Shown: piece after piece, positions 1,329 through 64,000 of the stretch
Layout of the letters: every line of letters starts with the position of its first letter
Position numbering within the stretch: the first letter of the stretch is position 1
Source: a phage
Strand: one strand, 5' to 3'
Assembly (NCBI GenBank): GCA_014685065.1
Contig: GCA_014685065.1_4092.1
Length of the DNA: 64,000 nt
Position numbers and translations under genes: made by a program
The notes under the pieces: generated by a model
Seen by the model: the letters and a program-made list of their open reading frames with translations, nothing else
What the model was told of the DNA's origin: nothing
Databases searched by the model: none

Positions 1329-1329
1329 A

Positions 1330-1941: not shown

Positions 1942-1954
1942 TATGATATTATAG

Positions 1955-1983: not shown

Positions 1984-1994
1984 GGAGAAAATAT

Positions 1995-2267: not shown

Positions 2268-2287
2268 AGTTTTTTAGGTAAAAATAT

Positions 2288-2644
2288 ATGAAAACAAAAA
2301 TCTTTCTACCACAAACCATGATGGAACTGTGTGAACATGATGCAGGAGATGTTGTCACTATTAGTGGTTCCTGGAATGAGAGTACTGAAGACTTTATGCC
2401 AGATGAGGTATATTCTGTTGTTTTAAATGAACAGTACAATACAAGCCGTTGGAATGAACAGTACAATCTAGTTTTTCTTGACAATAACAATGAAAAGTAC
2501 TATCATTGTACGTATGAACGAGGTCTGACAGAACGTAACTACACAACTCCTTTCTGTGATGAAATGGATGGTGTAAAGTGCTATGAAGTTTCTGTTCGTC
2601 AGGTTCCAGTTGTTACTTACAAAACCGAGTGGGATTATCTGTAA
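2288..2644 (+). CDS. hypothetical protein, paralog family A
   Basis: tandem paralog of 1995-2267. Confidence 0.6.
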   Translation: MKTKIFLPQTMMELCEHDAGDVVTISGSWNESTEDFMPDEVYSVVLNEQYNTSRWNEQYNLVFLDNNNEKYYHCTYERGLTERNYTTPFCDEMDGVKCYEVSVRQVPVVTYKTEWDYL

Positions 2645-3042
2645 TGATTAAAGATTTAGATTTTTCAAATTTAGAGATCATCAGTGCAGTGAAGAATATT
2701 ACTGATATGGATGATGAAAAAGGTGTAATGGTAACTATCACTTTCGTAAAGGAAGAGGATAGCTATAAGCATCTTACTGGAATTGAAGAACTAATTCATA
2801 AAACCAATCTTGAGAATGATGGTAAACTCATCAAGCTTCAGGCTTCATATACGCAAAAAACGTCAAATTTTATAGACCTAAATAATGTAGTCAAGGTGGT
2901 ATACAATCATCCTGATCACACATATAGGAACACGACAAGAAATGAAAATGTTGCTAACGATTCGAATATTATCGAAGATGTTGAATTCATAAACACAATT
3001 TTTGATCGTTGTTCTAAGGATTTAAAAAAAGTATACATGTAA
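2644..3042 (+). CDS. hypothetical protein
   Basis: ORF, TAATG overlap start. Confidence 0.5.
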   Translation: MIKDLDFSNLEIISAVKNITDMDDEKGVMVTITFVKEEDSYKHLTGIEELIHKTNLENDGKLIKLQASYTQKTSNFIDLNNVVKVVYNHPDHTYRNTTRNENVANDSNIIEDVEFINTIFDRCSKDLKKVYM

Positions 3043-3043
3043 T

Positions 3044-3071
3044 GGGACATTATATGTTCCAATGATATAAT
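3044..3071 (+). promoter_or_regulatory. sigma70-type promoter GGGACA-N16-TGaTATAAT
   Basis: GGGACA 3044-3049, TATAAT 3066-3071 with TG extended -10; drives ORF-free region. Confidence 0.55.
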
Positions 3072-3344
3072 GTATATAGAAAATGACAACGGACATTGAA
3101 AAATGGACACTGAGAACCTACTTCTCTTGAAAATGTAAAGGATAGATGAGCTTTACCGTTGTAGCGAACAGCAGAAGAAACCTGTTAGAGTACTGGCATT
3201 TAAACAAACACGATGTAAGACCACGAATCACGGCGACACGGCTGTATAAAGAACTCCGATAAGCATACAGAGAGTTCCTAGATAGATGTATAAGGTTCGC
3301 ACCTTACCAGATTTGCTAAGGGAGTTTAAGAATAGCGGACGCAA

Positions 3345-42700: not shown

Positions 42701-45297
42701 GCACCAGTTACATTCAAATTAGTAATATTCGCAGTAGTAGAACCTAGAGTTGCAATTGTCGCATCAGTACTTTGTAGTTTAGGTAGAACACTACTAATAG
42801 TTGATTCATTACTAACGATTGCACCAGTACTGGTTAGAGATTTAACTGTTACATCAGCAGCAGTTAGGTCTACTGTACCGTTAACGGTTAAGTTTCCACC
42901 AATTGTTGCACCAGCAGTTGTTGTGATTGATTTAGCGTTAACATCAGTTGATGCTAGGTCGATAGATCCAGGAATCACAGCACCACTAACAGTTAAGTCA
43001 CCAGTGATAGAAGTATTATTACCAATTGTAACACCAGTTACATTGGAAATAGATGGAGTAACTAGAGATGCAGTTGTTGTTTCACCACTTACATTTAAAG
43101 TTGTTCCGACTACAACATCAGCACTTGTACGAACAGATGCTAGATTAGATGGACCTGTTACCGCAAGTTCAGTTGCATTAACAGTATTAATTGTTGCAGT
43201 AGTACTATTAAGTACTGGTAAAACGTTGGCGTTAACCAAATCATTACTTTTAACAATACCAGAAGTTGTTACAGATTTAACGTTAAGGTCAGCGGCTGAT
43301 AAATCAAATGACCCTTGAACAACTAAATCACCACCAATTGTTGCACCAGCAGTTGTTGTAATAGAGTTTGCATTAATATCAGTAGTGCTTAGATCTAAAG
43401 AACCTACAGTTAAACTACCAGTAATATCAACGTTTTCAGTAAAGTTAGTATTTCCAGTAATAGTTGGAGCAGAAAGACTTGTAGCACTAATAGTTGTACC
43501 ATTAATAGTTCCACCACTTAGTATACCACTTGCAGTAATAGTTGGAGCACTTACTTCAGTGGATGCAGTAATAGATGGTGCAGATACAGATGTTGTACCA
43601 GTAATAACACCAGCATTAATAGAACCAGCAGATAATGCACCAGATAGATTTGCAGTAGTACCTGCAATATCACCTGTAACGGTTAGTTTAGCACCTACAG
43701 TAGTATTTCCAGTACTTTCAAGAGTTGCACCTTTCACGTTTGCAGCAGCTACAACAGAGTTAGGAGTTAAGTTTTGACCACTAACATCAACAGTTAGGCC
43801 AGTAACAGTACCAGTGAAATCAACATCATTAAGAATAGTTTTACCACCAACTTGTAGGAATGGTGTACCTGGGGCTTGTGTTTCATTACCAGTGATAGTT
43901 AGGTAATCTAGTTTGTTAAGACCGTTACCAGTAATACCATAGGTAGATAGTGAAGCATTACCAAAAGTTGCGGTTTTTAGAACATTCAATGTTGCAGGTG
44001 AAACAACTTCTGATTGAACTTCGTTAGGTAAAATAACAGTTGGGCGTTGGCCTGGTGCTGTATATCCAAATCCTAATTTAACTGCTGCATCTTGACTGTT
44101 TTGACCCAAGCTAATGGATTTGAAAGAAGCAGTACTATTAAAGCCAGTGATATTTGAACCTAAAGTTACTGCACCAGTTAGTGAAGATGTACCAGTAACA
44201 TTCAATGAAACTGCATTAATATCGTCAAGTTGGAATGTACCACCTAGTAGACCAGAAACGTTAATGTTATTAAAGTTTGCGGTTCCTGTACTTTCAATAT
44301 TTGGAATAGTTGCTGTACCAGTAACTTCAAAGTCAGCAACTTTGGTTTTACCCTTTTGAACTTCCAATAGTGGGGTGTCTGGTGATTGAGTATTGTTACC
44401 AGATACAGTTAGGTAATCTAGTTTGTTAAGACCGTTACCAGTAATACCATAAGAAGAAAGAGAAGCGTTACCAAATGTTGCAGATGTCAAAACTGTTAAA
44501 TTTGCAGGTGACATTAATTCAGATTGAATTTCGTTTTGAAGAACTACAGTAGGACGTTTACCCGGAGCACTGTAAGGGAAGCTTAGTCTGAAGGTTTGAG
44601 ATTCAGAGTTGGAACCAATACGAATGTCTTTAAAAGTAGCAGTACTGTTAATACCAGTTACGTTAGCACCGAAAGTCACTGCACCTTGTTGGTTAGATGC
44701 ACCAGAAACGTTCAATGTTACTGCATTTAAGTCAGAAAGATTAAACTGACCACCTAATGTACCACTAATGGTTACATCTTTAAAAGTAGCAGTTCCAGTA
44801 CTACTAATATCGGTTGTACTTACATTAGTAATTTCTGCGGTATTAGCAGTAATTTTATCAAATGCAGCAGTAGTACCAACATCAGCAGTAATATTACCTT
44901 TAAATGCTGTTGTTTCAGCAACTTCTAAGTTTTTAACTTTAGTTGCTTGTAGAGTGGTTGTACCAGCAGTTTGTGTAAAATCAGAACCAACTGATACAGT
45001 ACCGTTAAAGGTAGCGTTTGAATTAATTGTTGCTGTATCAGACCCGACAACTGCACTACCGATTGTAGTATTACCCTCAACACCAAGACCACCAGAAAGT
45101 GTTGCTTTGCCACCAACATCTAAAGTAGATGTAATGTTGGCAGTTGATGATTCAATGGCAGTAAAAGTTGCATTTGCAAAAGTTACAGTACCATTTACAG
45201 TTAGGTTATTATTGAAAACAGCATTTCCTTTGACTAAAAGATCCTTACCAACCGTACCAGCACCAGTAATATCTAAGTCAGTTTTTATTGAGTACAT
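39772..45297 (-). CDS. long tail fibre protein (1841 aa) with extensive T/G/S/A/V-rich repeats
   Basis: continuous ORF, GGAGGG RBS, low-complexity beta-strand-like repeats. Confidence 0.6.
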   Translation of the reverse strand: MYSIKTDLDITGAGTVGKDLLVKGNAVFNNNLTVNGTVTFANATFTAIESSTANITSTLDVGGKATLSGGLGVEGNTTIGSAVVGSDTATINSNATFNGTVSVGSDFTQTAGTTTLQATKVKNLEVAETTAFKGNITADVGTTAAFDKITANTAEITNVSTTDISSTGTATFKDVTISGTLGGQFNLSDLNAVTLNVSGASNQQGAVTFGANVTGINSTATFKDIRIGSNSESQTFRLSFPYSAPGKRPTVVLQNEIQSELMSPANLTVLTSATFGNASLSSYGITGNGLNKLDYLTVSGNNTQSPDTPLLEVQKGKTKVADFEVTGTATIPNIESTGTANFNNINVSGLLGGTFQLDDINAVSLNVTGTSSLTGAVTLGSNITGFNSTASFKSISLGQNSQDAAVKLGFGYTAPGQRPTVILPNEVQSEVVSPATLNVLKTATFGNASLSTYGITGNGLNKLDYLTITGNETQAPGTPFLQVGGKTILNDVDFTGTVTGLTVDVSGQNLTPNSVVAAANVKGATLESTGNTTVGAKLTVTGDIAGTTANLSGALSAGSINAGVITGTTSVSAPSITASTEVSAPTITASGILSGGTINGTTISATSLSAPTITGNTNFTENVDITGSLTVGSLDLSTTDINANSITTTAGATIGGDLVVQGSFDLSAADLNVKSVTTSGIVKSNDLVNANVLPVLNSTTATINTVNATELAVTGPSNLASVRTSADVVVGTTLNVSGETTTASLVTPSISNVTGVTIGNNTSITGDLTVSGAVIPGSIDLASTDVNAKSITTTAGATIGGNLTVNGTVDLTAADVTVKSLTSTGAIVSNESTISSVLPKLQSTDATIATLGSTTANITNLNVTGATSVADVTSSGKVTAVSIEVPTIGNTAGVSIANNTSITGDLTVSGTVTPGAIDLTTTDVNAKSITTTAGANIGGDLVVSGTVDLSAADVSVKSLTSAGIITVSSAEGVNLLPKVQSTDITATTVNATTAAVSGDVSAANANISGAVNGASATLSGVGTALNVTNNATVGGALTVGSLTSAAESVSITKNTAITGDLAVSGTLTAGVIDLSTTDVSVKSLNSLGNATVNGDLTVTGSINLSSSNIVGVTLESTGSTTVGTDLILTTGNVTGSPIISGNLSVTGTSTLSGATTVSNTLNTAGKLTVNAGGIQVVTGGIQVDAGTIAAPSANISDTATLNSAVVTTTLGVTGAASMNGGLTASTLAVTGDSTVQKLTVKGEFIPEGGLNLAGADLNVNSVTAATTLAVTGASTLTGGVSTSTITASGKATAQEVSTGTLGVTTDATVGGTLGVTGKATVGSLDSGAVSATSGTFSTTLDVTGAATFGNNVNITGTLTPGALDLASTDVVANSLSVATTLHSDGNATVGGTLGVTGAATAPSITLNGEGTALAVTNNATVGGTLGVVGEATLGSLTTSGAVKTGANVVIGTKIGDQPETVQIFPNTYIAGSLRVDGGINADIDVSGQTIEPYAVVAADTISAAGNITSGAELISKSATIGDVGSQNNNLTINGNVVNNGNFTVTGVLNATLNQANSDVAVKSLTATNSVAAGTSITAGTSITATGLLKGNTLEVTTTGSFGGAVTMSSGANITGTVGITSGNLTVGGDISATGTATLGATSVTTITTSGAATLASASVTGAATVGGTLTVTGLMTANGSVVLGDAAADTLTVNATSSFKENAVFDKNVTVTGQLTTTNADLTTTTVTTKKYDVIPNQVTSSVIAPTGTWTPDGTSNVYFITLDQDTTLAPITGLIGGGKASSVYIYVKQDATGNRNFTTDGTYAVVDGTLNKTANSVTIYQVIYDGVSPVVDMFIAQRTA

Positions 45298-45390
45298 TTA
45301 TACCCTCCATTATAACCTTGTTAATATGTATATATTTAGTTTTATTATGCTGTTATCCAACAATTAATACATTATTTGACAAAAGCAAAT

Positions 45391-45428
45391 ATAATAAAAA
45401 ACCAGACTTATTTAGAACAAGTCTGGTT
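45391..45428 (-). terminator. intrinsic terminator (minus strand)
   Basis: AACCAGACTT / AAGTCTGGTT hairpin then TTTTATTAT on minus strand. Confidence 0.6.
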
Positions 45429-45434
45429 AATTTT

Positions 45435-46331
45435 TTACTTACCGGAGATGACAATCTTACCACTGAAAGAAATATCAGAAGTGAAGATTACATCACCAGT
45501 ACTACTAATTTGTGTATCAGTCACTACCAACTCGAATGGAGATGACGCAACACTTCCAGGTGTTTTATTTGCATAAATTGAAATATACAAATTATCTGGG
45601 GTTTGATTGTGTTCGGATGCTGGAATAGTGATTGTGAAATCACCAGCACTAGAAACCCAATCTGCTTGGTTTACTAATTTACTATAAGGTACTGTCATTG
45701 TGGTTGCTCCTATAATGTTTACTTTAACACTTGCATAATCTGTGATTTGACCAATCACATCAATTGTTATATCCCCAATACCACTAACTGTTACTGTGGT
45801 TTGGAATACTGATTCCAATGCAACATTACCTGGGTCACCTTGTAGTTGAATCATAATATCAGAACCTCTACCATGAACTGATTCTGGTAGTGTGTAAGTA
45901 TAATGATCAGTAGTATCTGGTACTAATGTAAATGCAGAAACAGGAACTATTTCAGTAGTTACATATGAGCTATCAGTTCCAGGTGAGCTACCTTTAAATG
46001 GTTTCCAAATACCAAGATCTTTAATATAAATTTGAAGAACATTAGTACTATCAACCAAAAAGTAAACGTCACCATCTAGACCAATAGAATCGGATGGTGC
46101 TGTTGTTCCACGTAAGATACCAGAACTACCACCACCACTGTGTGCGTTTAAATATCCCAATGTAACCAAGTGTGTGTTTGCAGTTGGTTCACCTGCTGAA
46201 ATTGGAAGAAGTTGTGTTCCTGAGTAGTTTTGAATTTGCACAACACTACCATTTGTGGTAATCTGTGCACCATTCTTCCCAAGAATGAAGGACTTCTTCA
46301 TGGTTCCTTCTAAATTAGAAAAAACTGCCAT
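45435..46331 (-). CDS. short tail fibre / receptor-binding protein with conserved N-terminal anchor
   Basis: N-terminus MAVFSNLEGTMKKSFILGKNGAQI shared with next gene; AAGGAG RBS. Confidence 0.5.
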   Translation of the reverse strand: MAVFSNLEGTMKKSFILGKNGAQITTNGSVVQIQNYSGTQLLPISAGEPTANTHLVTLGYLNAHSGGGSSGILRGTTAPSDSIGLDGDVYFLVDSTNVLQIYIKDLGIWKPFKGSSPGTDSSYVTTEIVPVSAFTLVPDTTDHYTYTLPESVHGRGSDIMIQLQGDPGNVALESVFQTTVTVSGIGDITIDVIGQITDYASVKVNIIGATTMTVPYSKLVNQADWVSSAGDFTITIPASEHNQTPDNLYISIYANKTPGSVASSPFELVVTDTQISSTGDVIFTSDISFSGKIVISGK

Positions 46332-46347
46332 TTTAATATAATCTCCT

Positions 46348-48489
46348 TTATGGTAGGGTTATGTAAGTTACGGGTTGGGCGGCTTTTAATGCTGCACCAG
46401 CGGCAGTTGCTGTTATGATAGGATCTGCAATATCAATTCTATATACGTTGTTTACAACATACACTGCACGAGTTATATACGTTCTCAAATCACCACCATT
46501 TTCACCAGCACCAGATATAATAATCTCAGTACCAGCAGCTTTTGCATATTGGTTTTCACCCCATGACACACCCAATGCTTCTATATATGTTTGTCCTACT
46601 ACGGTTTGTCTAATAGTGTCGTATTTTCCGAAAAAAGAACCACCAACGGTCACAATATATTTTCCACCAGATTGCTTATGTATAATAGTACCTTCTGGGA
46701 AATAACGACCACCCGGAAAAGTGTCGTAGGGAATATAATATTGTTCAACTACTGGTATCAGTACTGGGCCACGGTGACCTGTACCATCGATTGCAGTTGT
46801 AACTTTAAAGTTATTAGATGATTGGTCTATTCTGTCTACATACATTTTAGAAAAACTATATTTTGAAACATTACAATCATCTTGAACAACACAGTTAGTC
46901 CAATTAGTATAAGTATATTTAGAGCGAGTATAGATACCACCACCTTCGCCTTCTGTAGAGAGATGTTGACCAATTACGTCTAATTCTTTAGTTCTAATAT
47001 CACTAAATTTAGATGATGATGGTAAACCACGCCAAAGAATTTTAGAACAGGTGATATTGCTCAATTCTGTATTATTTAACCAATTGTCAGAACCGGAAGT
47101 ATAAACAAGTATAGAAGACTCTGGAATATAGAGATTAGAAATTTTAAAGTTTCTAGGTGGTCCAGCAAAACGACCAGAAGTTACACCCCAGTTTATTGAA
47201 ACCATTCTATTTGTGATAGAAGGATCATTAAGCAAATGACCAGTCAACCCATCAATAATGAATTCTTTAGAACCATAAGTTATAACACCAGCAGTGGTTA
47301 ATCCAGTACCGACAGAAACTAAAGATGATGGATAAACTTCATTATTAAGTATTTTAAAGTCCATGCCTAATTCAACGTGGATACATTGTCTAACATTATA
47401 TAGTCTGTTATTTTTAATAACAAAGTTTCTGACATATTGTGTATCTGGTGCATCTAAACCATAAGGACCAGAACCAGCAACACCAATACCAATACCCCAG
47501 TTTGAAAGTGGGATTGGAGCGTTAGAACCATCAACGTTTTCAATTATGTTCCCTTCAATAACAAAACCATCAGGATAGTGTGAGTTAATTACGTTTAGTT
47601 CAATTGCATCACCATATATATCATGTATGTGGTTATATGAATATCTACCAACCTTCATTTTCTCACCAGTACCTTGTTGAAGAACACCATACTTACATTG
47701 GGTCATTTCATTAAAGCAAAAATCTATTGTACCTGGTTGTGTCATGCCTTGCATTAAAAATGCAGCAGTACTTGTGATGTTTATAAATTTATTAAAATAA
47801 AACTTACCATCGCCACCGAAGAATTTTAAATAACATCCAGTAAGTGTTGCAAATTGTATTTGGGAATTAATAACGGATACCATAGTACCACCGTTACCAG
47901 TAATAGTTCCCCCAAACCAAGTTACATCTTCCAGATATATTGCCGTTTTGATACGGTAATTACCACCAGCCTGAATTTGTATTTTATTTTCTTTAGCATA
48001 CGCAGCACATAAATTTACAGCAGCAGTGTCATCAGTTTCGCCATCACCTTTAGCACCAAATTCTTCTGGTGTTATATAAAACTGTGCCTGTTGAACTGTA
48101 CCTCCAGTAATAAGTCCGATGAAATCTCCACCATTTTTACTGGATAGAACTTTTTTATTAATGTATAATGATTTTACCCATGTACCATTGCTTTTTGCAA
48201 AAATATCAACAATACCATCTTCATCAATTTGAAAATACGTATTATTGTTCTTTCCTATATCATCGGTAGGTGGTACAACACCAAATAATGCATTAGGGTT
48301 ATCTTCAAGATATTTTACGTTAACTGCTGAATTAGGATCAGATGAAGTTCCTACCTTCAGTGGTAGGAACTGTTCTCCTAGATAATCTTTTATAGAAACT
48401 GAATCATTGATAAAATTTATTGAAGCACCTTTTTTCCCCAATATGAATTTGGGCTGCATAGTTCCTTCAAAATTAGAAAATACTGCCAT
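46348..48489 (-). CDS. tailspike with right-handed beta-helix (pectate-lyase-like) domain, probable polysaccharide depolymerase
   Basis: N-terminal anchor MAVFSNFEGTMQPKFILGKKGASI; beta-helix-like repeats with GDAIEL, NNRLYN motifs; GGGAGGA RBS. Confidence 0.55.
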   Translation of the reverse strand: MAVFSNFEGTMQPKFILGKKGASINFINDSVSIKDYLGEQFLPLKVGTSSDPNSAVNVKYLEDNPNALFGVVPPTDDIGKNNNTYFQIDEDGIVDIFAKSNGTWVKSLYINKKVLSSKNGGDFIGLITGGTVQQAQFYITPEEFGAKGDGETDDTAAVNLCAAYAKENKIQIQAGGNYRIKTAIYLEDVTWFGGTITGNGGTMVSVINSQIQFATLTGCYLKFFGGDGKFYFNKFINITSTAAFLMQGMTQPGTIDFCFNEMTQCKYGVLQQGTGEKMKVGRYSYNHIHDIYGDAIELNVINSHYPDGFVIEGNIIENVDGSNAPIPLSNWGIGIGVAGSGPYGLDAPDTQYVRNFVIKNNRLYNVRQCIHVELGMDFKILNNEVYPSSLVSVGTGLTTAGVITYGSKEFIIDGLTGHLLNDPSITNRMVSINWGVTSGRFAGPPRNFKISNLYIPESSILVYTSGSDNWLNNTELSNITCSKILWRGLPSSSKFSDIRTKELDVIGQHLSTEGEGGGIYTRSKYTYTNWTNCVVQDDCNVSKYSFSKMYVDRIDQSSNNFKVTTAIDGTGHRGPVLIPVVEQYYIPYDTFPGGRYFPEGTIIHKQSGGKYIVTVGGSFFGKYDTIRQTVVGQTYIEALGVSWGENQYAKAAGTEIIISGAGENGGDLRTYITRAVYVVNNVYRIDIADPIITATAAGAALKAAQPVTYITLP

Positions 48490-48503
48490 TATGACATCCT
48501 CCC

Positions 48504-49619
48504 TTAAATATTATCTTGAATCGGTTGGATAGGAGCTTGCCATGAAAGAGTACAAATAATTTCCATTTTTCCATAAGGACTGTTGTTAACAGAATCGTTG
48601 AATACACATGAAATAATTTCATCAACATCGGATGCTGCATGATTAGTTTCATTAACAATAAAACGCATCTGACGATTGATATCAAAGTAGGAAGTTGGTG
48701 CAATTACAGTCCCACCAATATCTTCTTGTGCTTCACCACCAAAACGTACAAACATATCAGTTACAGGAAGAGAATAAGGTTGTATAACGTTTACATCAAT
48801 ATTAGAAACTACATATCCAGCAGGACACGTACCAATAACTAATAGTGCGTTAGTCCATGAGCTATCTATTGTATTTCTAATAGAAATTGTATCTTTACCT
48901 GGTGCACCTGGTTCGCCTTGTATACCTTGAATACCTTGCTGACCTTCTTTACCACGGAATAGAATACCATCACTCCACTCTTTTGAAGGAGGGGTAGTTG
49001 TAGTTACTTCATCAACATAATATAGTTTTCCATCAGTGTTGTTATAAAAACAATAATCAACTGGAAGATTTTCAATACTTGGAAATTGATCACCACTGCT
49101 ATCAATATGGAAACGACCACGCGGACCTTGTTCACCACGGAAAGGGATACCATCACTCCAAGTGGCAGTTACACTTTGATAGAAATAAAGCTTACCATCT
49201 TGAGTATTATAAAATGTATAGTTATTAAAAAGACCAGTTGTTGGGAAAGAAGTCCCAGCACTATCAATGTGGAACGGCTTACCCGCTTCACCAGTATCAC
49301 CTTTACCAAACTCAACACTAATCCATGTACTTGTCGGATCTTGTGCATCGTTTGATTTAAAGTATAGAGTACTGGTATTGTTAGCCAAGCTTAAGTAGCA
49401 CCACCCAAGTGGTTCACCAACTTTAAATTGTTCGGAAGGAATTTCAAAACCAATCTCATTAGGATAAAAGTTTTTACCATTCTCGCCATTCTGTCCTACA
49501 ACAAGACCTAAATCTTGAATTGTGTTATCTGCATAGGTTACAATTAAATGCCCAGCACCATTAATAACTAGACTTTTGATGCCGGAGTTATTACATGAAC
49601 CATTAAATGAAATTGTCAT
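48504..49619 (-). CDS. fibre protein with collagen-like Gly-X-Y tracts and triplicated module
   Basis: GEQGPRGRF and GKEGQQGIQGIQGEPGAPGKD; ATG 49619 with AAGGGA RBS preferred over TTG at 49655. Confidence 0.5.
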   Translation of the reverse strand: MTISFNGSCNNSGIKSLVINGAGHLIVTYADNTIQDLGLVVGQNGENGKNFYPNEIGFEIPSEQFKVGEPLGWCYLSLANNTSTLYFKSNDAQDPTSTWISVEFGKGDTGEAGKPFHIDSAGTSFPTTGLFNNYTFYNTQDGKLYFYQSVTATWSDGIPFRGEQGPRGRFHIDSSGDQFPSIENLPVDYCFYNNTDGKLYYVDEVTTTTPPSKEWSDGILFRGKEGQQGIQGIQGEPGAPGKDTISIRNTIDSSWTNALLVIGTCPAGYVVSNIDVNVIQPYSLPVTDMFVRFGGEAQEDIGGTVIAPTSYFDINRQMRFIVNETNHAASDVDEIISCVFNDSVNNSPYGKMEIICTLSWQAPIQPIQDNI

Positions 49620-49729
49620 AATATTTCCCTTGTATGAGTTAATGTCATATACCAATATTTATCAGTACAAAATACATTTCGTTATCATTAATAAATAAAT
49701 GAAAGTTCACTACTAAAAGGGCTTAAACA

Positions 49730-50236: not shown

Positions 50237-50845
50237 ATGAAATTAGAAACAGAACAACCAAAACTATTTGTTAAAGGTCATGTCCTAATTACTGACGTTA
50301 CTGATCCATCAAATCAAAAAATCGTTTTAGATAAATCTAACGCTATTCACCCTGAAAATATGAGTACTGCCATTGCTAATGCGTTAGCATATAATCAAGA
50401 CAGTACTGGTATTCCTATTGGTTCTATTAGCGAGATGCGTTTTGGTAATGGTGGTACAGTAGTTTTAAGTACTGGGCGTGTTACTTATAAAAAACCACGT
50501 GTTACATCATTTGGTGGTTTGTATTCACAAACATATTTGAAAAAAATCAACCCAAGAATTACGGCTGGTATCGATTCACAATATAATAATATTACGACTG
50601 TTCATATTCCAGGACAATCCTATACTGACATCGTGTGTATTTGTACTTTAGGCTTAGGTGAACCATCAGATCAAGGTGTGAGTTCAGGGACAAGCATGGA
50701 CGGAACATATGTGTTTGATGAATTGGGATTATACACCGATGGTGATAGTGGTATTCCTTTAACACATATTATTTTCCACCCAGTTGAAAAAAGTGCAAAC
50801 CGTGTTTTGCAAATTAAATACACTGTGCGTGTACAACTACAATAA
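50237..50845 (+). CDS. hypothetical tail-associated protein
   Basis: ORF, AAGGA RBS. Confidence 0.45.
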   Translation: MKLETEQPKLFVKGHVLITDVTDPSNQKIVLDKSNAIHPENMSTAIANALAYNQDSTGIPIGSISEMRFGNGGTVVLSTGRVTYKKPRVTSFGGLYSQTYLKKINPRITAGIDSQYNNITTVHIPGQSYTDIVCICTLGLGEPSDQGVSSGTSMDGTYVFDELGLYTDGDSGIPLTHIIFHPVEKSANRVLQIKYTVRVQLQ

Positions 50846-50857: not shown

Positions 50858-51958
50858 ATGAGTGTTAACTATACAATTTATCGAAGTAATGGTAGTGTTT
50901 ATGCTACCATTCCAAATAACGTTATTTTAGGTCCAAATCAGCCAGGTAGTAACCCAGTTCCATTAAATTTAGTTGGTAGAAACAAAGTAAGTTATGGTCA
51001 AGCATGGAATGAAAACTTTTTACATTTAGTTGAAAACTTCAGTTCAGCTTCAGCACCACGTGGTAACGTAAATGGTCAACTTTGGTATCGAAATACTGGA
51101 AGTACTGGTGAGTTATTAATATCATTAGTGGATAATGCTAGACAACCAGCAGATATGGTAAGTGAAGCGGAATGGGCTTCTATTCCAATGATAACTGTAT
51201 TCAACACTGTACCAGATGGTGAAAACAGTGTTATGGGTCGTATGGTATTAACCAGCAATGGTGATTCACTTCGTGTTTTGATGAAAAACAAAGAATGGCG
51301 TGAAATTCAAACATCTCGACCAGAAAACAAAGAATATACATCATTATTAGATATTAACTATGATAATGGAAAAAAATACATAGAGTTTACACAAAGTAAC
51401 AGTACTAAACCAATTGCGTATTTTAACTTAGGTGGTACTTCACAAGTAGATACAAATAACTGGACAACATTAACTAATGGTACTGGTGTCTTTGAATTTG
51501 GTAGCAACTATTTCTATGAATTAAAAATTATGATTAGAGAAGTAAATGATTCTTCTGGTGAGATAGTTTCTCTTCCCTATAATTCAAAAACCTTTTTTAT
51601 AAAAGGGCAATTCTATGTAGATAATCAAGGAACTTTTGTTCCTGGTTCGGTTGGGGCAAGTCAAATGCCAGACCCACGTAGGATTACACAATTAGAATCC
51701 ATAAAAGATGTTATTACCAGTAGTCGCCCAAACTGGGACGTAAATATTGTTATTAATGGTGTAGATCCATCTATCCCAAATCCTAATGGAACATCTAAAG
51801 CTGATTATGAAAATTGGGTTATCAATTCTCTAAACTCAAATAAAAATTTAGGTTTTCGAGTTGATGGTAGCATTAGTAATCTAACTGCTGGTGAATCCGT
51901 TAAACTACAAGCATCCGTGTTGTTAAATATCACAGGTATTCCGATTATTGGAGTATAA
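50858..51958 (+). CDS. hypothetical tail/baseplate protein
   Basis: ORF 366 aa. Confidence 0.45.
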   Translation: MSVNYTIYRSNGSVYATIPNNVILGPNQPGSNPVPLNLVGRNKVSYGQAWNENFLHLVENFSSASAPRGNVNGQLWYRNTGSTGELLISLVDNARQPADMVSEAEWASIPMITVFNTVPDGENSVMGRMVLTSNGDSLRVLMKNKEWREIQTSRPENKEYTSLLDINYDNGKKYIEFTQSNSTKPIAYFNLGGTSQVDTNNWTTLTNGTGVFEFGSNYFYELKIMIREVNDSSGEIVSLPYNSKTFFIKGQFYVDNQGTFVPGSVGASQMPDPRRITQLESIKDVITSSRPNWDVNIVINGVDPSIPNPNGTSKADYENWVINSLNSNKNLGFRVDGSISNLTAGESVKLQASVLLNITGIPIIGV

Positions 51959-55370: not shown

Positions 55371-55409
55371 TTTATTAATTAGAGTGACGTGAATCACATA
55401 GGAGAATAC

Positions 55410-57698
55410 ATGAATCTTACTCAATTGTTCAAAAAAAGCGACGAACTGGCAACATCTCTAGGTCATACATTCTTGACTATTGACCACGTAAGTGCCACAG
55501 TACTGACTATTGATAGCATCAAGAACGTATTTGAAGATATGAACATTGATGCAGACAAACTGCACAACCGCCTGATGAACTATCTTAAAAATACAACAGT
55601 TCCACATGCACCAAAAAGTGTTAAAGATGAAGACGCGAATCGCACTTCACTTCTAGTGAATCGCGTTGTACATGAGCTTTCTAAAAAATCAGTTATTGAA
55701 CAACTAAAAAGTGATGATTTTTCGATTGATGCATATTTTGTTCTATTCGAATGTCTGTCTTTCCCTAACACAGCACTAGAAGCTGCGTTGAAAGAAGAAG
55801 GTGTTAGCTGTACTGAAGCTGCACGTGCATTGCAAAAACACGTTGAGTCACTTGATAAGGGTATCAACTTACAAAGTATTAATGACGAACCGATTGGAGA
55901 TAAAAAAGTGGCCCAACAGCAGCAATCATCTAAACAAAAAGGTTTGGAAGACTATACAACGAATCTAACTGCTCTTGCAAAAGAAGGCAAACTAGATCCT
56001 ATGATTGGTCGCCAGAAAGAATTGTCTGCATTGATTGAGACTCTTGCTCGCAAAACCAAAAAGAATGCTATTCTTACTGGTGAAGCTGGTGTAGGTAAAA
56101 CACAAATCATCGACGGTCTTGCACAAGCTATTGCTGACGGCAACGTACCTGAACACCTGAAAGACGTTGAAATTCTTTCACTAAATGTTGGTGCATTGAC
56201 TGCTGGTACTAAGTATCGTGGTGAGTTTGAAGAACGCATCGACAATTTGCTAAAAGAACTAAAGAAACGTGAAAATACTATTGTTTTCATTGATGAAATT
56301 CATATTATGGTTGGGGCTGGTTCCGCAAGTAATGGTTCTATGGACATGAGCAATATGCTTAAGCCAGCACTTTCACGTGGTGAGATTCGTGTAATTGGTG
56401 CAACAACATATGATGAATATCGTAAAAATATCGAGAAAGATAGTGCATTAACTCGTCGTTTTATGAAAATTGATGTAGTTGAGCCGTCAATTGATGAAAC
56501 TCGTGCAATTGTTAATGGTTTGAAACCAACTTATGAAAAATTCCATAATGTTGAGTTCACAACTGATGCAATGGATGCTGTAATTTCTCTCAGTGATAAA
56601 TTCCTGAAGAATAAGCACTTCCCAGATAAAGCAATTGATCTAATGGACGCTGCTGCTGCAAAAGTTCGTTCACGTGACAACAATAGTAAGCTTATTACTG
56701 CCAATTTGATTCAAGAAGTTGTTGCTGGTATTGCCAATTTGGATATCAACGTGGTTGCATGTACTGAAAGTGATCGTATGCGTAATCTACCAGATGCACT
56801 ACGCTCACGTGTATACGGTCAAGAGGAAGCTATTCAAAAATTAGTTGATAACGTGATGGTAGCTCGTGCAGGACTGCGTGACAAATCTAGTGTTCAGGGT
56901 GCATTTATGTTTGTTGGACCATCTGGTACTGGTAAAACAGAAATTACCAAAGCATTAGCAGATGCAACTGGTGCGGAACTGATTCGCTTTGATATGTCAG
57001 AATTTTCTCAAGAACATACTGTTTCTAAACTAATTGGTTCACCTCCAGGTTATGTTGGTCATGATTCTGGTAACGGTTTACTGTTGGATAAAATTGAGCA
57101 GTTCCCTAATGCAGTACTGTTACTTGATGAAATTGAAAAAGCAGATCGTAAAGTACTACTAACCTTCCTACAGGTTTTGGATGAAGGTCGCCTGACTGGT
57201 TCACAAGGTAAAACTGTATATTTTAATAACGTAACTGTTATTATGACTACAAACCTTGGTGCGGCAGATTCAACGAAGCGTAGCATTGGTATGAGCGGTA
57301 GTGATACTGCACAAGACAAGGCAATTAAAGCATTCTTGCCACCAGAGTTTATTAACCGTATTGATAGTATCGTTACGTTTAAAGACCTAAGCAGTGAAGC
57401 TATTGACAGCATCATTGATAAGTTCATGGGCAGTTTGAATGAACAAGTCAAAGACCGCAATGTTAAAGTTACATTGACAAAAGCTGCACGTGAATGGCTT
57501 GCGAAAAATGGGGTAAAAGTTGGCATGGGTGCACGTCCAATGAAACGTACCATTGAACAAAACATTCGTGTACCACTAGCTAAAGAAATGTTGTGTGGTT
57601 CACTTGTGAATGGTGGTAACATTACATTTGATGTTATTGATGGTAAAATCGGTATTAAACCGAAACGTACCAAAGCTGTAGATAAAGCACTGGCATAA
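55410..57698 (+). CDS. clpA: ClpA-like two-ring AAA+ unfoldase (ClpA/B N-domain, D1, D2, no ClpB-type middle domain, IGM loop)
   Basis: two Walker A ([16 protein letters not shown]), Walker B ([15 protein letters not shown]), [22 protein letters not shown] tripeptide loop; near-colinear with E. coli ClpA from memory; AGGAG RBS. Confidence 0.85.
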
Positions 57699-57708
57699 AA
57701 AAAGAAAA

Positions 57709-57733
57709 GGAGAGCAATATGCTCTCCTTTTTT
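57709..57733. terminator. bidirectional intrinsic terminator
   Basis: GGAGAGC aatat GCTCTCC then TTTTTT, A-run upstream. Confidence 0.7.
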
Positions 57734-57734: not shown

Positions 57735-60700
57735 TTACTTAACTAATAATATATTTTTAATATCATTACCACTAACTTGTAGACTATCAGTGTATACTGA
57801 AAGATCTATAGTGTAACTATTTTGTGTGTAACGTTTTAACATATCATAATTACCTAAATTAATTCCATTGAATGAATATGTAGTATTAAGTTTAAAATCA
57901 TGTTCTGCACTATACATTACTCCACGGAGTAAATTATTTGCATTTCTAACTTCAACTTTTTCATATCCAATCGATATAATATCATTCATGTTCGCGGCAG
58001 AACCGGATAAAACATTATTTCTAATACTATAAGGACTTATTGATTTAGGTTGAGAAACATAGGTTGTATTTTCTTCACTAATGGTTGTGATGTTAGTAAC
58101 CGTGCCACCAACAACACCGATGTACATACCGTCAACCATTGGATATCCATAAACCCATATACCTTCATTATTTCTAAACGGTTGAATAACACTTGAATCA
58201 TATTCAATAACGTTGATTTCTAAACTATCAGTCATTTTAGTTCTTGCTAATTCACTAAGAACTCCCGCACCAGTAATTGGTAGGTTATAACCGTTGTCGA
58301 TAGTAATTCCATCAACATCAAATATTTCGTTAGAGATTATCCAAACGTCAACGTCATCTGGTGTTATTCCGTCATTGTACTTACCACCATTTAAAGTAGT
58401 ATCGTAGAAAACATCATAATTAATTACATCAATTGTGTAATTTCTATTTTGTTCGTACAATTTGATACCATTCTTCACAAATTCTGGGTCAGCAAATGTT
58501 CTAACACGAACAATGTTCAATGCAAGAGGCTGTACTGGCTCATTTTGTTGTGCAAGAGTGATATTATCATAACGGAGAACTGCACCAGTACTCTCATCAA
58601 TCAATTCAATCGTTTCTTTACCTGTATTTCTTACAGTGAATAGGATCGGAGTTGTATTGTTTTTGATGTTAGATACACGCAAGATTGTTTCCCATGTGTG
58701 ATTTTGATATCTCACGAAATCTTCACCATCAGGAGTGAAAATCATCACCTTATCACCATCAGATAGGTCATTGTCAACTATTTCTGCTTCAGTTAAGCTA
58801 TTAATAGATCTCACACGATAGAAATATTTTTCATCAAACTTCGATGTTGTTTTATTAATATCATTTTCAATCTTAGCATATGAAGGAATACTAACAATTG
58901 CTTCTGTATGTTTATATGGATTGATAATTGCCATACCTTCAGTTTGATATCTGCTGTTATCACGTAATTGTACAAGAGATACATTGTCAAACCCATATCC
59001 ATCAACTGTAAATCTAATTTGACCAACATCACGCCCAGAAGGGTTTATGTCAGATATATCCACAATATAAGGATCAACCTCATCATCTTTAACTTCCCAT
59101 TTTATTGAAGAAGTTTGAGATTCTAATGCTAGGTTATCAAATGCATTCATATCATTGAAGTACTTAGCTTCAGTAATACTATCAAGTATATATTGATAAT
59201 CTGAATACATTGGGTTATTTTGATCTAGTGGTAAATCATCTAGATTTATTTCAGCTAGTTCAATCATTTCACCATTTGTGATAAAATAATCTTCCATGAA
59301 ATCATCAATACTTTGTTCATCAGGTATACTTTGATATACACCGTTAACATTTAAGTAAACATATTTTCGTGGAATCATTGTAATTGCATAGATATCAATT
59401 GGGGTTTTACTAAGAATCTCTTCAGCTTTTTCGTACTTATCAGTAGCGTCTTTGTCGAATAACCCTCTCATACCTGCTAATACGTGAATAGCATCAGTAT
59501 AGAAACGGGTATCACCACCGACTTCATCATAACGATAAACATATACACCATACTCAACTTCAAGTTTAACTTTTACTTCATAGTCTGATGCGTCAGGATT
59601 TTTATCTTTAATTAATGAAATATATTTTTGATACAGTTCACTGCTTATTTCAAAATATCCATAGTTATAATCATTACTAGAAGAAAAGCCTAATGGAAGT
59701 CTAGTACTAGGATTGTCATTATAAGTAAGTCCACTAAATCCACAACCAACTTCATCGTGAATTTTCTCATCACTTATATCTTTATAAAGTTTCAAACGGT
59801 TTGCCAATGTGTTATACTGAACATATTGTCTAAGGTCAGTAAACATATCGTTCTGCGTTGATTCTTTATAAACACGCTCCAATGTAGCAGTAAATTCATC
59901 TGTTGCTTCTAAATCTTCCGCATGGTCTTTATACCACTGGTTAACACCATATGCTGTTCCTAATGTTACATCCAATTCTGGATAGTAGATTTGCATTTGA
60001 TAAGCAATAAGAAGATCGAAAGTTTCTTCACTATATTCTGGGAAAGAATATATATAACGTTGTAATTCATAGTTACTAACAGCATCCTTTTCATTGGATT
60101 GATATTTGTTATTAACACTTACTAATTCATTTATGCTTGCCAAATCTGCATTTGGTTTACATTGAATGTTATCGTAATGCATAATAATATCAATTTCTTG
60201 GAATCTTCTATTTGGTGTAATGAAATCACTTGGTAGTGAACCTACCTGTTCCCATTTTTGGGTAATTTCATTAAATTGAGCGTACTCATAATCCCAAATA
60301 TCTTTTTCAGTTTTGACCCAAGAACCGTCAACGAAAATATATCCATTAGGATCTAAATCATTACACAGACCTTTTATTAAATCATCATCAGATGTCTTTT
60401 GCTCTATTTGTGAACGAATTTTAGTTCTATAAGGTTTAACTTCTTCAAAATATTCAACAATTTGATTAATCAAATTATCGTTTGAATAGTTTTGAACTAA
60501 TGATTGTTCCAAACCAACAATATAGATATATGATGTTTTAAATACCCAATCCACAACACTTTGTTCAACATGTACATATTTGACCATATCAAAAACAATT
60601 TCGCTTTGATGTAAATCGAAAGAATTTTTGAGTAAAGCTAGTGCTTTACGAACGTTGATTTCACGATTGCTTAGTGAACCATTATCATTATGAACACTAT

Positions 60701-63700
60701 AATCTGCGTAAAGCATATCATTGAGTTCAACTGTACTGTTTTCACGACCAATCGCTTTCCAATAAATTGAATCGCGTGATTGTGATTTAATATACAATGT
60801 CCAAATGTTTTCACTATCGGTAACTCTGATAATATCGCCAACTTGGTAGTTTTTAGTATTAGCATCTTCTAAGCTTGACTCTTGAGTATAAGTCGTGTTA
60901 CTATCATACCCAACATCATACCAATCAGCATATGACCAGTACTGAGTCATGTCCAATGAAGTTCCCAGTGATTCAACATAATCAGATTGTTTAATCATTT
61001 TATGTTGACCCTCACCTTTGTTCTCTAACGTTATAGTAACAACACTACCCGCGTTTGCTGGACTATTCATTAACTGAATATATCCATTTTCGTCGAAGTG
61101 AATAAAATAAACAGCACTAGAAGTTAATGGATTTGGTAGATATCCACTAGTACTTAAAATAACAGCGTCATTTTCTTTAAATTTATCACTTTCAACTGCA
61201 ATAACTAATTCATTATTGTAAGACAATACACGGAAAGAAACTTCATTCGGATTAACTTCAGTGGTTTTAACATTAAACACATCTTCCATAACAACACTAT
61301 TAGTGGTTATGTTTTGTGACCTATAATAATTATTAGCACTTTCTACAAAGTTTCTACGAGCTTCTATAACATTTTGGAACCAAGTTTTGTTTGAACCTAA
61401 ACCGTTATCAACATCTGGATATAATAAATTAATCACAGAACCTGATTCAGTTGTTTCTTGACCAATTAGTGAGTTCCACATTGAATCCCAAATTAGTGGG
61501 TTAAAGTTATAGCTGTCACCTTCTTTACATAGTTGATACTGGTCATGTTTAACAACTTCAGTACTATCCATATAATAAGAAACAGTTAAAATACTGGTAT
61601 CATCATTCACTTTAAATTGCATATTACTAAGAATAAACGAGTTTTCATTGATTGGAGCGAACCAAGGAATGTTTAGCTGTGTTGGATCTTTAATAATACG
61701 AGCAATGTCAGTACATGATTTTGTTCTGGTATGTAGTGGTGGTACATAAATTGTATCACGTACCCAGAAATAGTATTTTGTCACATAACTATCAGTTGAA
61801 CTATCATATTCCAAAAATGTACTATAATTATCTTCAAGTGCAGTTCCACTTGGTAGATACATAGTATTATTTTTGTTTTTCTTAGCAACATCTTTACAGT
61901 ATTTGTCCCAGTTATATGGCTCAACTGGTGAACAAACCCACTCTAACACATCAATTGTACTATGTGGTAATAAACGACCCCAGTTGTAACGTTTGTATTC
62001 ATTGGTTGCATCAATGTCAACATTACCGTCTGCGTCATAAATTGCACGAGTATAATCCAAATAAAATGCAGTGCTAGTGTTCCACCATACTTGACCAACT
62101 TTATCAGCACCCCAAGCCTGGATTAACTCTCCATTACTATTATACTGTGCAGGATCAACTGGTGAAGTATATGTTACGTTTTGCATAGCCGCACCTGGAA
62201 TAACACCATTAATTGGGTCATAAACGTTTAGATATAGCTCAGTAATGTTAGTACGTTCATCATATGTCGTTGGACGATCAAATAAAGTACTTTGTGGTGC
62301 TTTAAAACTATATTTCTTGTCAATGTAAGCTTGACGTTCATCAGTACTGGCAAAACGTGATACATAACGATACAAACGTGGACGTGTATCTGGATCAGTA
62401 AATTCAATATCAATAGAAGTATCAAATGGAACTACCATAACTTTAGGATCAGAACCAGCAGTATAATATTGACTTTCTACTGTTAAAGTATCTGGCATAA
62501 AGTTAGTTTCATCAACAAAATAATAATAATCACCATCTTCAAGTGGTACATTATCAGTTAAAGTTACTTTACAAAATTGTTCAGCATACACATCGGTATT
62601 TTCAATAGGTGTTATAGAAACCATTTGCACATTAGTATCAACCAATTCAAAAATGTTCCACAAACCATTACCGTCTTTAAACATCCACACAGATTCAGGA
62701 TTTTCACCTTTACCATTAGTATAAGTTATGCGGTCATTATATGCAGTACTGAAATCTTTTGTTGTGTACGATACTTCATCCAATGTTACTGGACCAATAT
62801 CTGGAAGTTGGATATTTTCACTTCTTCCACTACGCATTGGGAATGAGAACTTACCATTTGGACGTGTAATCCAACGAGGATCTTTACCCTGCTCACCGAA
62901 GTATACAATATGATTACCATTACCATTTGAAGTTGCATTTACATCAAAAGAAACCATTTGAGGTTGTTGTTTAAATTGGTCATTGATTAGTTTAAATTGA
63001 AGGTTTTTCTTACCATCAATATTACCATATGTACCAATTTTAAATGCCCATTCTTGTAATGCTTTATATTCATCAGTGTCATATGATTTAGAAACACGAA
63101 GTACACGTTCTAAAACTTGGTTAGTACCTTTATCGTGAATGAATCCTTTATAGAAATCAACACGACTAACATCACTACTAATCATACGCTGTAGATAATC
63201 ACGAGATTGATAACCAATCAAATGGTTTGACAACTCTTGTAATTGTACATCACTTACTGGAGTTTCACTATCATAATAATGTTGGAAATCCGACACTAAT
63301 TTTTCAAATGATGGTAGTGTTCCAGCTTCCAAGATAATAAATCCAGGAGCTTGTAGGCGACCAGTCCATGAACCAGTAATATATCCATACATTTTAATTA
63401 GTTCTTGAATAGAACCATATGTTGGCTGATAAATGTAATCACCAAAAATAGTTTTATCATCAAAAATAACAGCATGTTCATATGAACACAAACTTAAACG
63501 AATCAATGCAATGCGTTTATTAGATTCTAAAGTTCTAACAGTGAAGATATTTCCAATACGAGAAGTTTCAATTTCATATTGGCGAATACCTTGGTTATTA
63601 TCATCAAGTAATGACCATACACCACCATTATTTTGCGTAATAGATTGTACTGAACCAAAGTCTGCCCCAAATTTAGCGTTTGCAGCACTTGGGGTACAAG

Positions 63701-64000
63701 AAATAAATTCACCAGTTACTAGAGAATTCTGACTCCAGATCACGAAATCTTTAGCAATAGTGTTCCAATCTTGTTGAGCACCACTATCATTTACATCTTC
63801 AAAAATCCAACCATGTTCTTTAAGATATTCACCATATCCACAAATAAAAGTATAAACTTCTTGGTAACTATTGAAAACTTTACCATATTCAATTGAAGCT
63901 TCAGACTTCCATTCATTATAATGAACAACATTACGGTTTTCCAATTTAAGAGTTACTTTTCTACCATTTTTTACGGGAAGTTTATATTTAAATTTAGCAC
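57735..64000 (-). CDS. giant virion-associated protein, 5-prime partial (>2088 aa, N-terminus beyond window)
   Basis: reading frame stays open to position 64000; track start is only an in-frame TTG. Confidence 0.6.
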   Translation of the reverse strand, partial: AKFKYKLPVKNGRKVTLKLENRNVVHYNEWKSEASIEYGKVFNSYQEVYTFICGYGEYLKEHGWIFEDVNDSGAQQDWNTIAKDFVIWSQNSLVTGEFISCTPSAANAKFGADFGSVQSITQNNGGVWSLLDDNNQGIRQYEIETSRIGNIFTVRTLESNKRIALIRLSLCSYEHAVIFDDKTIFGDYIYQPTYGSIQELIKMYGYITGSWTGRLQAPGFIILEAGTLPSFEKLVSDFQHYYDSETPVSDVQLQELSNHLIGYQSRDYLQRMISSDVSRVDFYKGFIHDKGTNQVLERVLRVSKSYDTDEYKALQEWAFKIGTYGNIDGKKNLQFKLINDQFKQQPQMVSFDVNATSNGNGNHIVYFGEQGKDPRWITRPNGKFSFPMRSGRSENIQLPDIGPVTLDEVSYTTKDFSTAYNDRITYTNGKGENPESVWMFKDGNGLWNIFELVDTNVQMVSITPIENTDVYAEQFCKVTLTDNVPLEDGDYYYFVDETNFMPDTLTVESQYYTAGSDPKVMVVPFDTSIDIEFTDPDTRPRLYRYVSRFASTDERQAYIDKKYSFKAPQSTLFDRPTTYDERTNITELYLNVYDPINGVIPGAAMQNVTYTSPVDPAQYNSNGELIQAWGADKVGQVWWNTSTAFYLDYTRAIYDADGNVDIDATNEYKRYNWGRLLPHSTIDVLEWVCSPVEPYNWDKYCKDVAKKNKNNTMYLPSGTALEDNYSTFLEYDSSTDSYVTKYYFWVRDTIYVPPLHTRTKSCTDIARIIKDPTQLNIPWFAPINENSFILSNMQFKVNDDTSILTVSYYMDSTEVVKHDQYQLCKEGDSYNFNPLIWDSMWNSLIGQETTESGSVINLLYPDVDNGLGSNKTWFQNVIEARRNFVESANNYYRSQNITTNSVVMEDVFNVKTTEVNPNEVSFRVLSYNNELVIAVESDKFKENDAVILSTSGYLPNPLTSSAVYFIHFDENGYIQLMNSPANAGSVVTITLENKGEGQHKMIKQSDYVESLGTSLDMTQYWSYADWYDVGYDSNTTYTQESSLEDANTKNYQVGDIIRVTDSENIWTLYIKSQSRDSIYWKAIGRENSTVELNDMLYADYSVHNDNGSLSNREINVRKALALLKNSFDLHQSEIVFDMVKYVHVEQSVVDWVFKTSYIYIVGLEQSLVQNYSNDNLINQIVEYFEEVKPYRTKIRSQIEQKTSDDDLIKGLCNDLDPNGYIFVDGSWVKTEKDIWDYEYAQFNEITQKWEQVGSLPSDFITPNRRFQEIDIIMHYDNIQCKPNADLASINELVSVNNKYQSNEKDAVSNYELQRYIYSFPEYSEETFDLLIAYQMQIYYPELDVTLGTAYGVNQWYKDHAEDLEATDEFTATLERVYKESTQNDMFTDLRQYVQYNTLANRLKLYKDISDEKIHDEVGCGFSGLTYNDNPSTRLPLGFSSSNDYNYGYFEISSELYQKYISLIKDKNPDASDYEVKVKLEVEYGVYVYRYDEVGGDTRFYTDAIHVLAGMRGLFDKDATDKYEKAEEILSKTPIDIYAITMIPRKYVYLNVNGVYQSIPDEQSIDDFMEDYFITNGEMIELAEINLDDLPLDQNNPMYSDYQYILDSITEAKYFNDMNAFDNLALESQTSSIKWEVKDDEVDPYIVDISDINPSGRDVGQIRFTVDGYGFDNVSLVQLRDNSRYQTEGMAIINPYKHTEAIVSIPSYAKIENDINKTTSKFDEKYFYRVRSINSLTEAEIVDNDLSDGDKVMIFTPDGEDFVRYQNHTWETILRVSNIKNNTTPILFTVRNTGKETIELIDESTGAVLRYDNITLAQQNEPVQPLALNIVRVRTFADPEFVKNGIKLYEQNRNYTIDVINYDVFYDTTLNGGKYNDGITPDDVDVWIISNEIFDVDGITIDNGYNLPITGAGVLSELARTKMTDSLEINVIEYDSSVIQPFRNNEGIWVYGYPMVDGMYIGVVGGTVTNITTISEENTTYVSQPKSISPYSIRNNVLSGSAANMNDIISIGYEKVEVRNANNLLRGVMYSAEHDFKLNTTYSFNGINLGNYDMLKRYTQNSYTIDLSVYTDSLQVSGNDIKNILLVK

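Follow-up and report, generated by a model that had tools for sequence, protein, structure and literature searches.

A 3,323-residue virion protein of jumbo phages encoded at the gene position of the baseplate wedge protein gp7

The DNA considered here is a 64,000-nucleotide stretch of a phage genome (NCBI GenBank assembly GCA_014685065.1, contig GCA_014685065.1_4092.1), called the window throughout, which ends inside a giant gene carried on the minus strand. The window holds residues 1237–3323 of a 3,323-residue, 382-kDa virion structural protein, and the gene is real and intact. We lean towards the view that this giant is the baseplate protein in the place of gp7 (BW3), a peripheral subunit that would join two copies of a gp6-like protein, with one giant per wedge and six wedges in all. 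This placement builds on gene order, the giant gene staying joined to a gp25-like/gp6-like pair even among very distant relatives. We infer the role of the protein from context only; it is notable for its size and its structural isolation.

An intact gene that extends beyond the window

On the minus strand, 2087 sense codons follow one another without interruption from position 63998 down to 57738 and are closed by a single stop codon; the register beginning at 64000 is out of frame and contains many stops. A first-pass annotation, made from the letters alone, had described a frame open to the window edge whose true start lies beyond it, and this description was correct on both counts. The program-made list of open reading frames (ORFs) gives 57735..63944, with a TTG start and 2069 residues, because the lister requires a start codon within the window, whereas the frame itself stays open to the edge; the TTG, as the first-pass annotation had also stated, is not the true start. 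In Escherichia phage 121Q, it continues for 1,236 codons past that edge to an ATG, forming gene 582 (9,972 nt), whose product gp582 has 3,323 residues. From the regional base composition, the probability of a stop is 0.081 per codon, that is, one stop expected every 12 codons, and a run of 2087 codons free of stops has a probability of about 1e-77. Stops number 109 and 385 in the two remaining minus-strand frames, and the longest open stretch obtained in each of 200 shuffles was 68 codons on average and 111 at most. A chance origin of the frame, or an artefact, is excluded.

The corresponding stretch of 121Q is 99.1% identical in nucleotide sequence over 6266 bases, and about 20 other Asteriusvirus genomes are 97–99% identical over the same 6.3 kb; the window fragment differs from 121Q gp582 at 6 of 2087 residues. 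The first-pass annotation had named a frameshift or stop in the extended sequence as the finding that would split the gene into several, and none is present. The giant ORF is one annotated coding sequence (CDS) in 121Q, SHEFM2K, RaK2 (ORF070w) and PA5oct (3,857 residues), and a nucleotide search returned 33 phage records in which one match spans at least 80% of the query, on which grounds an assembly or frameshift artefact was rejected. In two Salmonella phage records, SD-1_S14 and SD-2_S15, the ORF is broken into 2–4 CDS, and these breaks are most likely sequence errors.

Database records of the homologues 121Q gp582, RaK2 ORF070w, CBB_236, phAPEC6 gp245 and the PA5oct giant carry only the names “hypothetical” or “virion structural protein”; all represent the same gene with the same neighbours, belong to PHROG 10938 and do not differ in kind from the protein described here. 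The window fragment matches positions 1238–3324 of the 3324 in phrog_10938 (E=0, 3475 bits), and the full-length homologue P0001 matches positions 1–3324; the PHROG is labelled “virion structural protein”.

Presence in virions

That the giant is a virion protein is supported by mass spectrometry (MS) of its homologues in phAPEC6, CBB and PA5oct, in line with one of the two roles proposed by the first-pass annotation. In phAPEC6, gp245 (381.88 kDa) was identified by 17 peptides in purified virions, where it is listed beside gp244, “baseplate wedge”; the gp6-like protein of the same phage gave 21 peptides against 17 for the giant (PMC7247149). The mass computed here for the full-length homologue, 381.9 kDa, agrees with that of the detected phAPEC6 protein. 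In CBB virions, CBB_236, which adjoins the gp6-like CBB_237, was represented by 21 peptides (PMC5259590), and the database record of the PA5oct giant carries a note of electrospray ionization tandem MS (ESI-MS/MS). PA5oct gp128 is one of the two largest proteins (PMC7318152). The papers searched on these phages assign no role, location or structure to the giant protein.

Gene order around the giant

In contractile systems, the wedge genes run in the order gp25-like, gp6-like, gp7-like, and the gp7-like part is peripheral and a hot spot for fibre docking (Pam3, PMC9942802; XM1, PMC10457771; AlgoCIS, PMC8894135); in phiKZ too, the gp7-like wedge subunit is peripheral and carries fibres (PMC13250141). 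The order in 121Q is gp53-like (gene 589), gene 588, a gp5-like hub/lysozyme (587/586), gp25-like (585), an HNH gene, gp6-like (583) and the giant (582), for which the T4 counterpart is 53-5-6-7. The 1,153-residue gp583 is the gp6-like protein and matches phrog_219, “baseplate wedge”, at 1e-20. The giant thus occupies the same slot, gp25-like, gp6-like, X, as the known BW3 proteins: T4 gp7, P2 gpI, P1 BplA, XM1 gp17, Pam3 gp23, phiKZ gp128 and TssG of the type VI secretion system.

The arrangement recurs well beyond close relatives of 121Q. The giant gene lies immediately downstream of the gp6-like gene in 121Q, SHEFM2K, RaK2, PA5oct and two environmental contigs, and a gp25-like gene precedes the pair in RaK2 and PA5oct as well. 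The environmental examples, a 335-kb JGI contig and a 233-kb TARA scaffold, encode giants that are only 21–24% identical and have the same pair: the upstream gene is a homologue of gp583 (33–38% identity) and is itself preceded by a GPW_gp25 gene. In both, the start codon of the giant overlaps the stop codon of the upstream gene (ATGA or TAATG), and this overlap suggests that the gp6-like and giant genes are translationally coupled in these contigs. Downstream of the giant in PA5oct come a 41-residue ORF, a 201-residue virion protein and fibre-like proteins, one of which contains the Pfam T4 Gp10_C domain (E 9.8e-24), an arrangement comparable to T4, where gp10 lies downstream of gp7. A homologue of the ~200-residue protein likewise follows the giant in the two environmental contigs, and in two of these three cases a tiny ORF of 29 or 41 residues separates it from the giant.

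Judged from 121Q, the gp6-, gp25- and gp5-like genes lie just past position 64000. The first-pass annotation had set the giant next to baseplate-like genes, which is true of the genome, although most of those genes fall outside the window; the window itself has fibre genes and genes for a gp15-like tail completion protein and a ClpA-like ATPase as neighbours of the giant. Coordinates of the features discussed are collected in Table 1.

Table 1. Features of the giant gene and of its surroundings in the window
Feature	Coordinates	Strand	Basis
C-terminal 2087 codons of the giant virion protein gene (residues 1237–3323)	57738..63998	-	open frame, identity with 121Q gene 582, phrog_10938 match
Stop codon of the giant ORF	57735..57737	-	translation
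In-window part of the conserved body, residues 1237–2450; mixed alpha/beta, mostly small beta-rich domains	60357..63998	-	
Most conserved block of the family, residues ~1400–1560, with invariant G1449 and G1455	63027..63509	-	alignment
Variable segment and insertion hot spot, residues ~1650–1800	62307..62759	-	alignment insertions
Fast-evolving, lineage-specific C-terminal module, residues 2451–3323, ~100 kDa, isoelectric point 4.3	57738..60356	-	family alignment
Intrinsic terminator hairpin (likely), 12-bp stem with 5 G-C pairs and a T run, 3 bases past the giant stop	57705..57731	-	sequence
ClpA/ClpB-like double AAA+ protein, 769 residues (Clp_N, AAA, AAA_lid_9, AAA_2, ClpB_D2-small)	55389–57698	+	Pfam
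366-residue, 40.34-kDa virion protein	50858..51958	+	tblastn of N-termini, mass match
202-residue, 21.95-kDa virion protein	50237..50845	+	tblastn, gene order, mass match
Fibre module	39772–49655	-	121Q annotation and PHROG matches

A family of giants with a conserved body and a variable tail

A word-indexed homologue search returned 95 relatives, nearly all of 2,800–3,600 residues, and a profile search returned 215; the 120 of these 215 matches that were listed are all giants of 2,779–5,638 residues, the contigs that carry them reach 512 kb, and no informatively named or shorter protein is among the 120. Homologues from metagenomes are single-piece proteins of 2,278–5,638 residues. Among isolated phages, the family occurs in Asteriusvirus, Alcyoneusvirus (RaK2, K64-1), GAP32, CBB, jumbo phages of Erwinia and Yersinia, a Vibrio phage, the PA5oct group, Atu_ph07 and RsoM2USA.

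The protein divides into parts with different histories. Residues 1–2450 are kept family-wide, and the last ~870 residues are specific to lineages: in a relative of 73% identity, the core is ~80% identical and the C-terminal module 50–60%, and in the group at 35–40% identity the module has been replaced. When 1.84 billion representatives were searched exhaustively by phmmer for the C-terminal 887 residues, only 7 proteins matched, none of them evidently outside the family (two full-length members, the rest matches of 60–343 residues). Conservation peaks in the block of residues ~1400–1560, where identity reaches 0.52–0.54 per 50-residue bin, the highest of the whole protein. This block is predicted to be mostly helical, and residues 157–313 of the monomer model are placed at a predicted local distance difference test (pLDDT) score of 28–57. 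The best-conserved block of the family (63027–63509) is also the worst-predicted part of the monomer model, a pattern expected of partner-dependent folding, and judging from these models the block is a candidate inter-subunit interface. Helical segments that are conserved yet modelled with low confidence in the monomer comprise residues 13–47 and ~1467–1538, and both are candidates for helices that would link two gp6-like chains in the core bundle and trifurcation unit of a wedge.

Insertions in the alignment cluster at residues ~150 and ~1690–1800, the largest of them at 1690–1803, and distant relatives carry about 900 extra residues in this second hot spot. The inserts of P0083, P0085 and P0093 hold FG-GAP repeats (E 1e-15 to 3e-21), and CBM_5_12 is also present in those of P0085 and P0093, two of the three examined; other relatives carry TIG, Laminin_G_3 and SGL domains. 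The labels that databases give to homologues are not consistent. That of PAC2 (PP408249), “chitin-binding type-3 domain protein”, is consistent with the CBM_5_12 inserts; that of EJP2 (OQ411014), “D-alanyl-D-alanine carboxypeptidase”, names a domain that was not found here.

Searches for known families and folds

The first-pass annotation recognized no motif by eye, and the same outcome was reached after searches of Pfam, NCBIfam and PDB profiles and after fold comparison. The full-length homologue is acidic, with a computed isoelectric point of 4.6, and computation on it revealed no hydrophobic or transmembrane segment and no internal repeat. In Pfam, NCBIfam and PHROGs, neither the fragment nor the N-terminal third nor the full homologue matched any informative family apart from the protein's own PHROG 10938; a sub-threshold match to Gp5_OB (E 0.2) was disregarded. 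Searches of PDB sequences with the fragment, the N-terminus and a 32-sequence family profile gave zero matches up to E=10, and gp7 is present in the PDB set in which the family profile gave no match at E<=10. Alignment by hhalign of the family profile and five sub-profiles with T4 gp7, T4 gp6 and the gp583 family likewise found nothing; against T4 gp7, represented by a single sequence and not by a profile, the probability was at most 0.7%.

Structure models of the giant are mixed, mostly beta. The model of the N-terminal 1,200 residues is a compact multi-domain body (pLDDT 85, predicted template modelling score 0.80), and the predicted architecture recurs in family members of 13–34% identity (template modelling scores 0.44–0.82). 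Fold searches revealed no solved gp7/BW3 chain that resembles the giant, and Foldseek against BFVD returned N-terminal chunks of the protein's own family together with weak matches to fibre N-domains, with gp7 absent from the results. Some 2,400 residues are confidently modelled, and in these models they have no solved structural relative.

Two smaller virion proteins linked to the giant

The 202-residue ORF of the window corresponds to the ~200-residue proteins that follow the giant in other phages (tblastn 33–41% identity, E 1e-27 to 1e-33). In PA5oct and both environmental jumbo-phage contigs, no sizeable gene intervenes between the giant and this orthologue. The 202-residue protein has a mass of 21.95 kDa, equal to that of phAPEC6 gp251c, which was detected by MS (PMC7247149). 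Searches of Pfam and PDB gave no match for it. It is a likely partner of the giant or, alternatively, a candidate for the small wedge subunit.

The adjacent 366-residue protein (40.34 kDa) matches another phAPEC6 protein detected by MS, gp250c, at 40.33 kDa (PMC7247149). Its first ~70 residues are common to the PA5oct fibre-like proteins (tblastn E 3e-5 to 1e-10) and occur also in a 313-residue protein of contig L005. From sequence comparison, this shared N-terminus looks like a common docking adaptor placed on differing distal domains, and the 366-residue protein is a candidate appendage that may dock at the baseplate periphery.

The proposed role and its alternatives

Among the marks of gp7/BW3 that were sought, the position of the gene directly after a gp6-like gene is the one that was found, and neither sequence or profile similarity nor a shared fold was detected. 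As neither kind of similarity was detected, we do not place the giant in the gp7 family and regard it as a positional and probably a functional analogue, not a demonstrated homologue, of gp7. As with T4 gp7, it is a virion protein with a variable periphery expected to carry fibres. It is also 3 to 18 times larger, with 3,323 residues against 1,032 in T4 gp7 and 176–242 in the minimal BW3 proteins.

If the giant does take the gp7 place, about six copies would be present per virion. A conserved part would anchor each copy on the gp6-like dimer, with the N-terminal helices 13–47 and the helical block 1400–1560 as candidates for the contact, and the conserved multi-domain body would make up the baseplate's outer ring or platform. 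Pointing outward or downward, the variable C-terminal module and the hot spot for insertions would dock lineage-specific fibres, such as the 366-residue protein with its adaptor, or make contact with the cell. The giant would thereby relay receptor binding to the wedge, whose rearrangement sets off contraction of the sheath. In Alg12, Afp12 and Pvc12 of extracellular contractile injection systems, gp6- and gp7-like parts are fused into one long wedge protein of many domains, the outer of which form an evolutionary hot spot and bind different fibres (PMC8894135), comparable to the variable C-terminus and insertion hot spot of the giant. These proteins hold the gp6-like part in the same chain, whereas the gp6-like partner of the giant is a separate 1,153-residue product, and no fold match was found. 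A more far-reaching proposal, which we put forward only tentatively, is that in Rak2-like jumbo phages a single polypeptide of 380–640 kDa, made of folds unlike any in solved structures, replaces an entire multi-protein periphery (gp7 to gp11 in T4; gp26/27/139/130/157 in phiKZ). It would then combine the tasks of a wedge subunit, a platform for fibres and, by way of its variable C-terminus and sugar-binding inserts, a direct sensor of the host surface.

Of the other explanations, the one that survives best, and that we nonetheless consider unlikely, is that the giant is an additional scaffold of the outer periphery, comparable to phiKZ gp27, gp26 and gp139, mounted on a conventional wedge whose small BW3 subunit is another protein, one candidate being the 202-residue protein described above. 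Minimal BW3 proteins are indeed small, XM1 gp17 having 242 residues (PMC10457771), and the ~200-residue protein is conserved, present in virions and followed by fibre-like genes, as in the I-H order of P2. The jumbo phage phiKZ builds a large separate outer periphery (gp27, gp26, gp139, gp130, gp157), which, like the gp7-gp8-gp9-gp10-gp11 assembly of T4, forms a large fibre platform around a conserved wedge core (PMC13250141). The lack of a fold match between the giant and gp7 belongs on the same side and weighs against placing the giant itself in the gp7 position. However, in all lineages examined the gene that directly adjoins the gp6-like gene or overlaps with it is that of the giant and not the 200-residue one, and in 121Q-like phages the 200-residue gene lies ~7 kb away on the opposite strand. 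In addition, the 200-residue protein has no Pfam or PDB match, and its N-terminus, as read by eye from an alignment and not computed, looks beta-strand-like rather than helix-turn-helix.

It is improbable that the giant is a trimeric, receptor-binding adhesin of the fibre or tailspike kind, hung on the baseplate by an N-terminal anchor like that of T7 gp17 or TSP4. The suggestion comes only from weak anchor-domain matches: the T7 gp17 N-domain and residues 1–250 of CBA120 TSP4 align with less than 10% of the modelled piece, outside the window, and score below the level of homology. The model is that of a compact monomer, the rest of the giant is not fibrous, and no trimeric fibrous or beta-helical shaft, repeats, or fibre or depolymerase domain was found.

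A tape measure role was rejected as well: the models are mixed and mostly beta and not near-all alpha-helical, the gene is flanked by those for wedge and fibres, and by our own estimate 3,323 residues would span a tail several-fold longer than the reported 123–128 nm. Least probable is an internal or ejected protein delivered with the DNA, akin to the 3,500-residue virion RNA polymerase of N4 or to head and inner-body proteins; the giant is very large, virion-associated and without a recognized motif, as such a protein might be, but Pfam, NCBIfam and PHROGs reveal no polymerase, enzyme, other catalytic or membrane family (on which an N4-type virion enzyme was rejected), no hydrophobic segment is present, the modelled fold is compact, beta-rich and multi-domain, the gene keeps its place between those for the wedge and the fibres, with apparent translational coupling to the gp6-like gene in distant relatives, and the CBM, FG-GAP, TIG and LamG inserts of relatives are typical of surface-exposed proteins. 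The same observations count against the injected protein that the first-pass annotation had offered as its second possibility.

Other features of the region

The hairpin listed in Table 1 sits between the giant gene and the convergent ClpA-like gene and is a likely terminator. The ClpA-like gene is also the neighbour of the giant in RaK2 (ORF069), not in PA5oct or the environmental contigs, and its product might assist the 382-kDa protein as chaperone or unfoldase. The fibre module comprises a 1,841-residue tail-fibre PHROG protein (“long tail fiber proximal subunit” in 121Q), a 298-residue virion protein, a 713-residue tailspike-like “colanic acid degradation” protein and a 383-residue tail protein; such proteins are the appendages that a protein of the baseplate periphery would need to carry.

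In the wedge cluster beyond the window, 121Q gene 584 (28518–29282 of L001) encodes an HNH endonuclease between the gp25-like and gp6-like genes and is missing from that site in SHEFM2K, and in both environmental contigs HNH genes adjoin the gp25-like gene. This distribution suggests a recurrent homing-endonuclease site in the wedge cluster. A scan of the whole window, positions 1–64000, for tRNA and tmRNA genes found none.

Implications

The gene was already known: it stands in databases as that of a virion structural protein and has served as the “largest ORF” landmark for aligning genomes of Rak2-like phages (PMC5259590). What is added here is an argued placement at the gp7 position that extends across very distant relatives, the distinction, within the protein, of a conserved body from a hot spot for insertions and a variable tail, the link from the giant to the 202-residue protein and to the proteins that bear the putative adaptor, and, as far as the models go, a body of ~2,400 well-predicted residues that stands apart from solved structures. 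Should the giant turn out to be merely an ordinary structural protein, little would be added beyond a better-argued location.

The giant gene is the largest in these 350-kb phages, and with members of up to 5,638 residues the family contains some of the longest phage proteins listed here. It is carried by jumbo phages of enterobacteria, Pseudomonas, Vibrio, Agrobacterium and Ralstonia and by large contigs from the ocean (TARA) and other metagenomes. Several such phages are in development as therapeutics, and it is at the baseplate that host range is set. If the outer wedge subunit is indeed this giant, host contact or fibre docking would be encoded in its fast-evolving C-terminus and its insertion hot spot, which would hence be targets for engineering, and the family would show how far the gp7 position can expand. 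If a single polypeptide does replace the whole periphery, these phages would have an architecture of their own by which a contractile tail is triggered.

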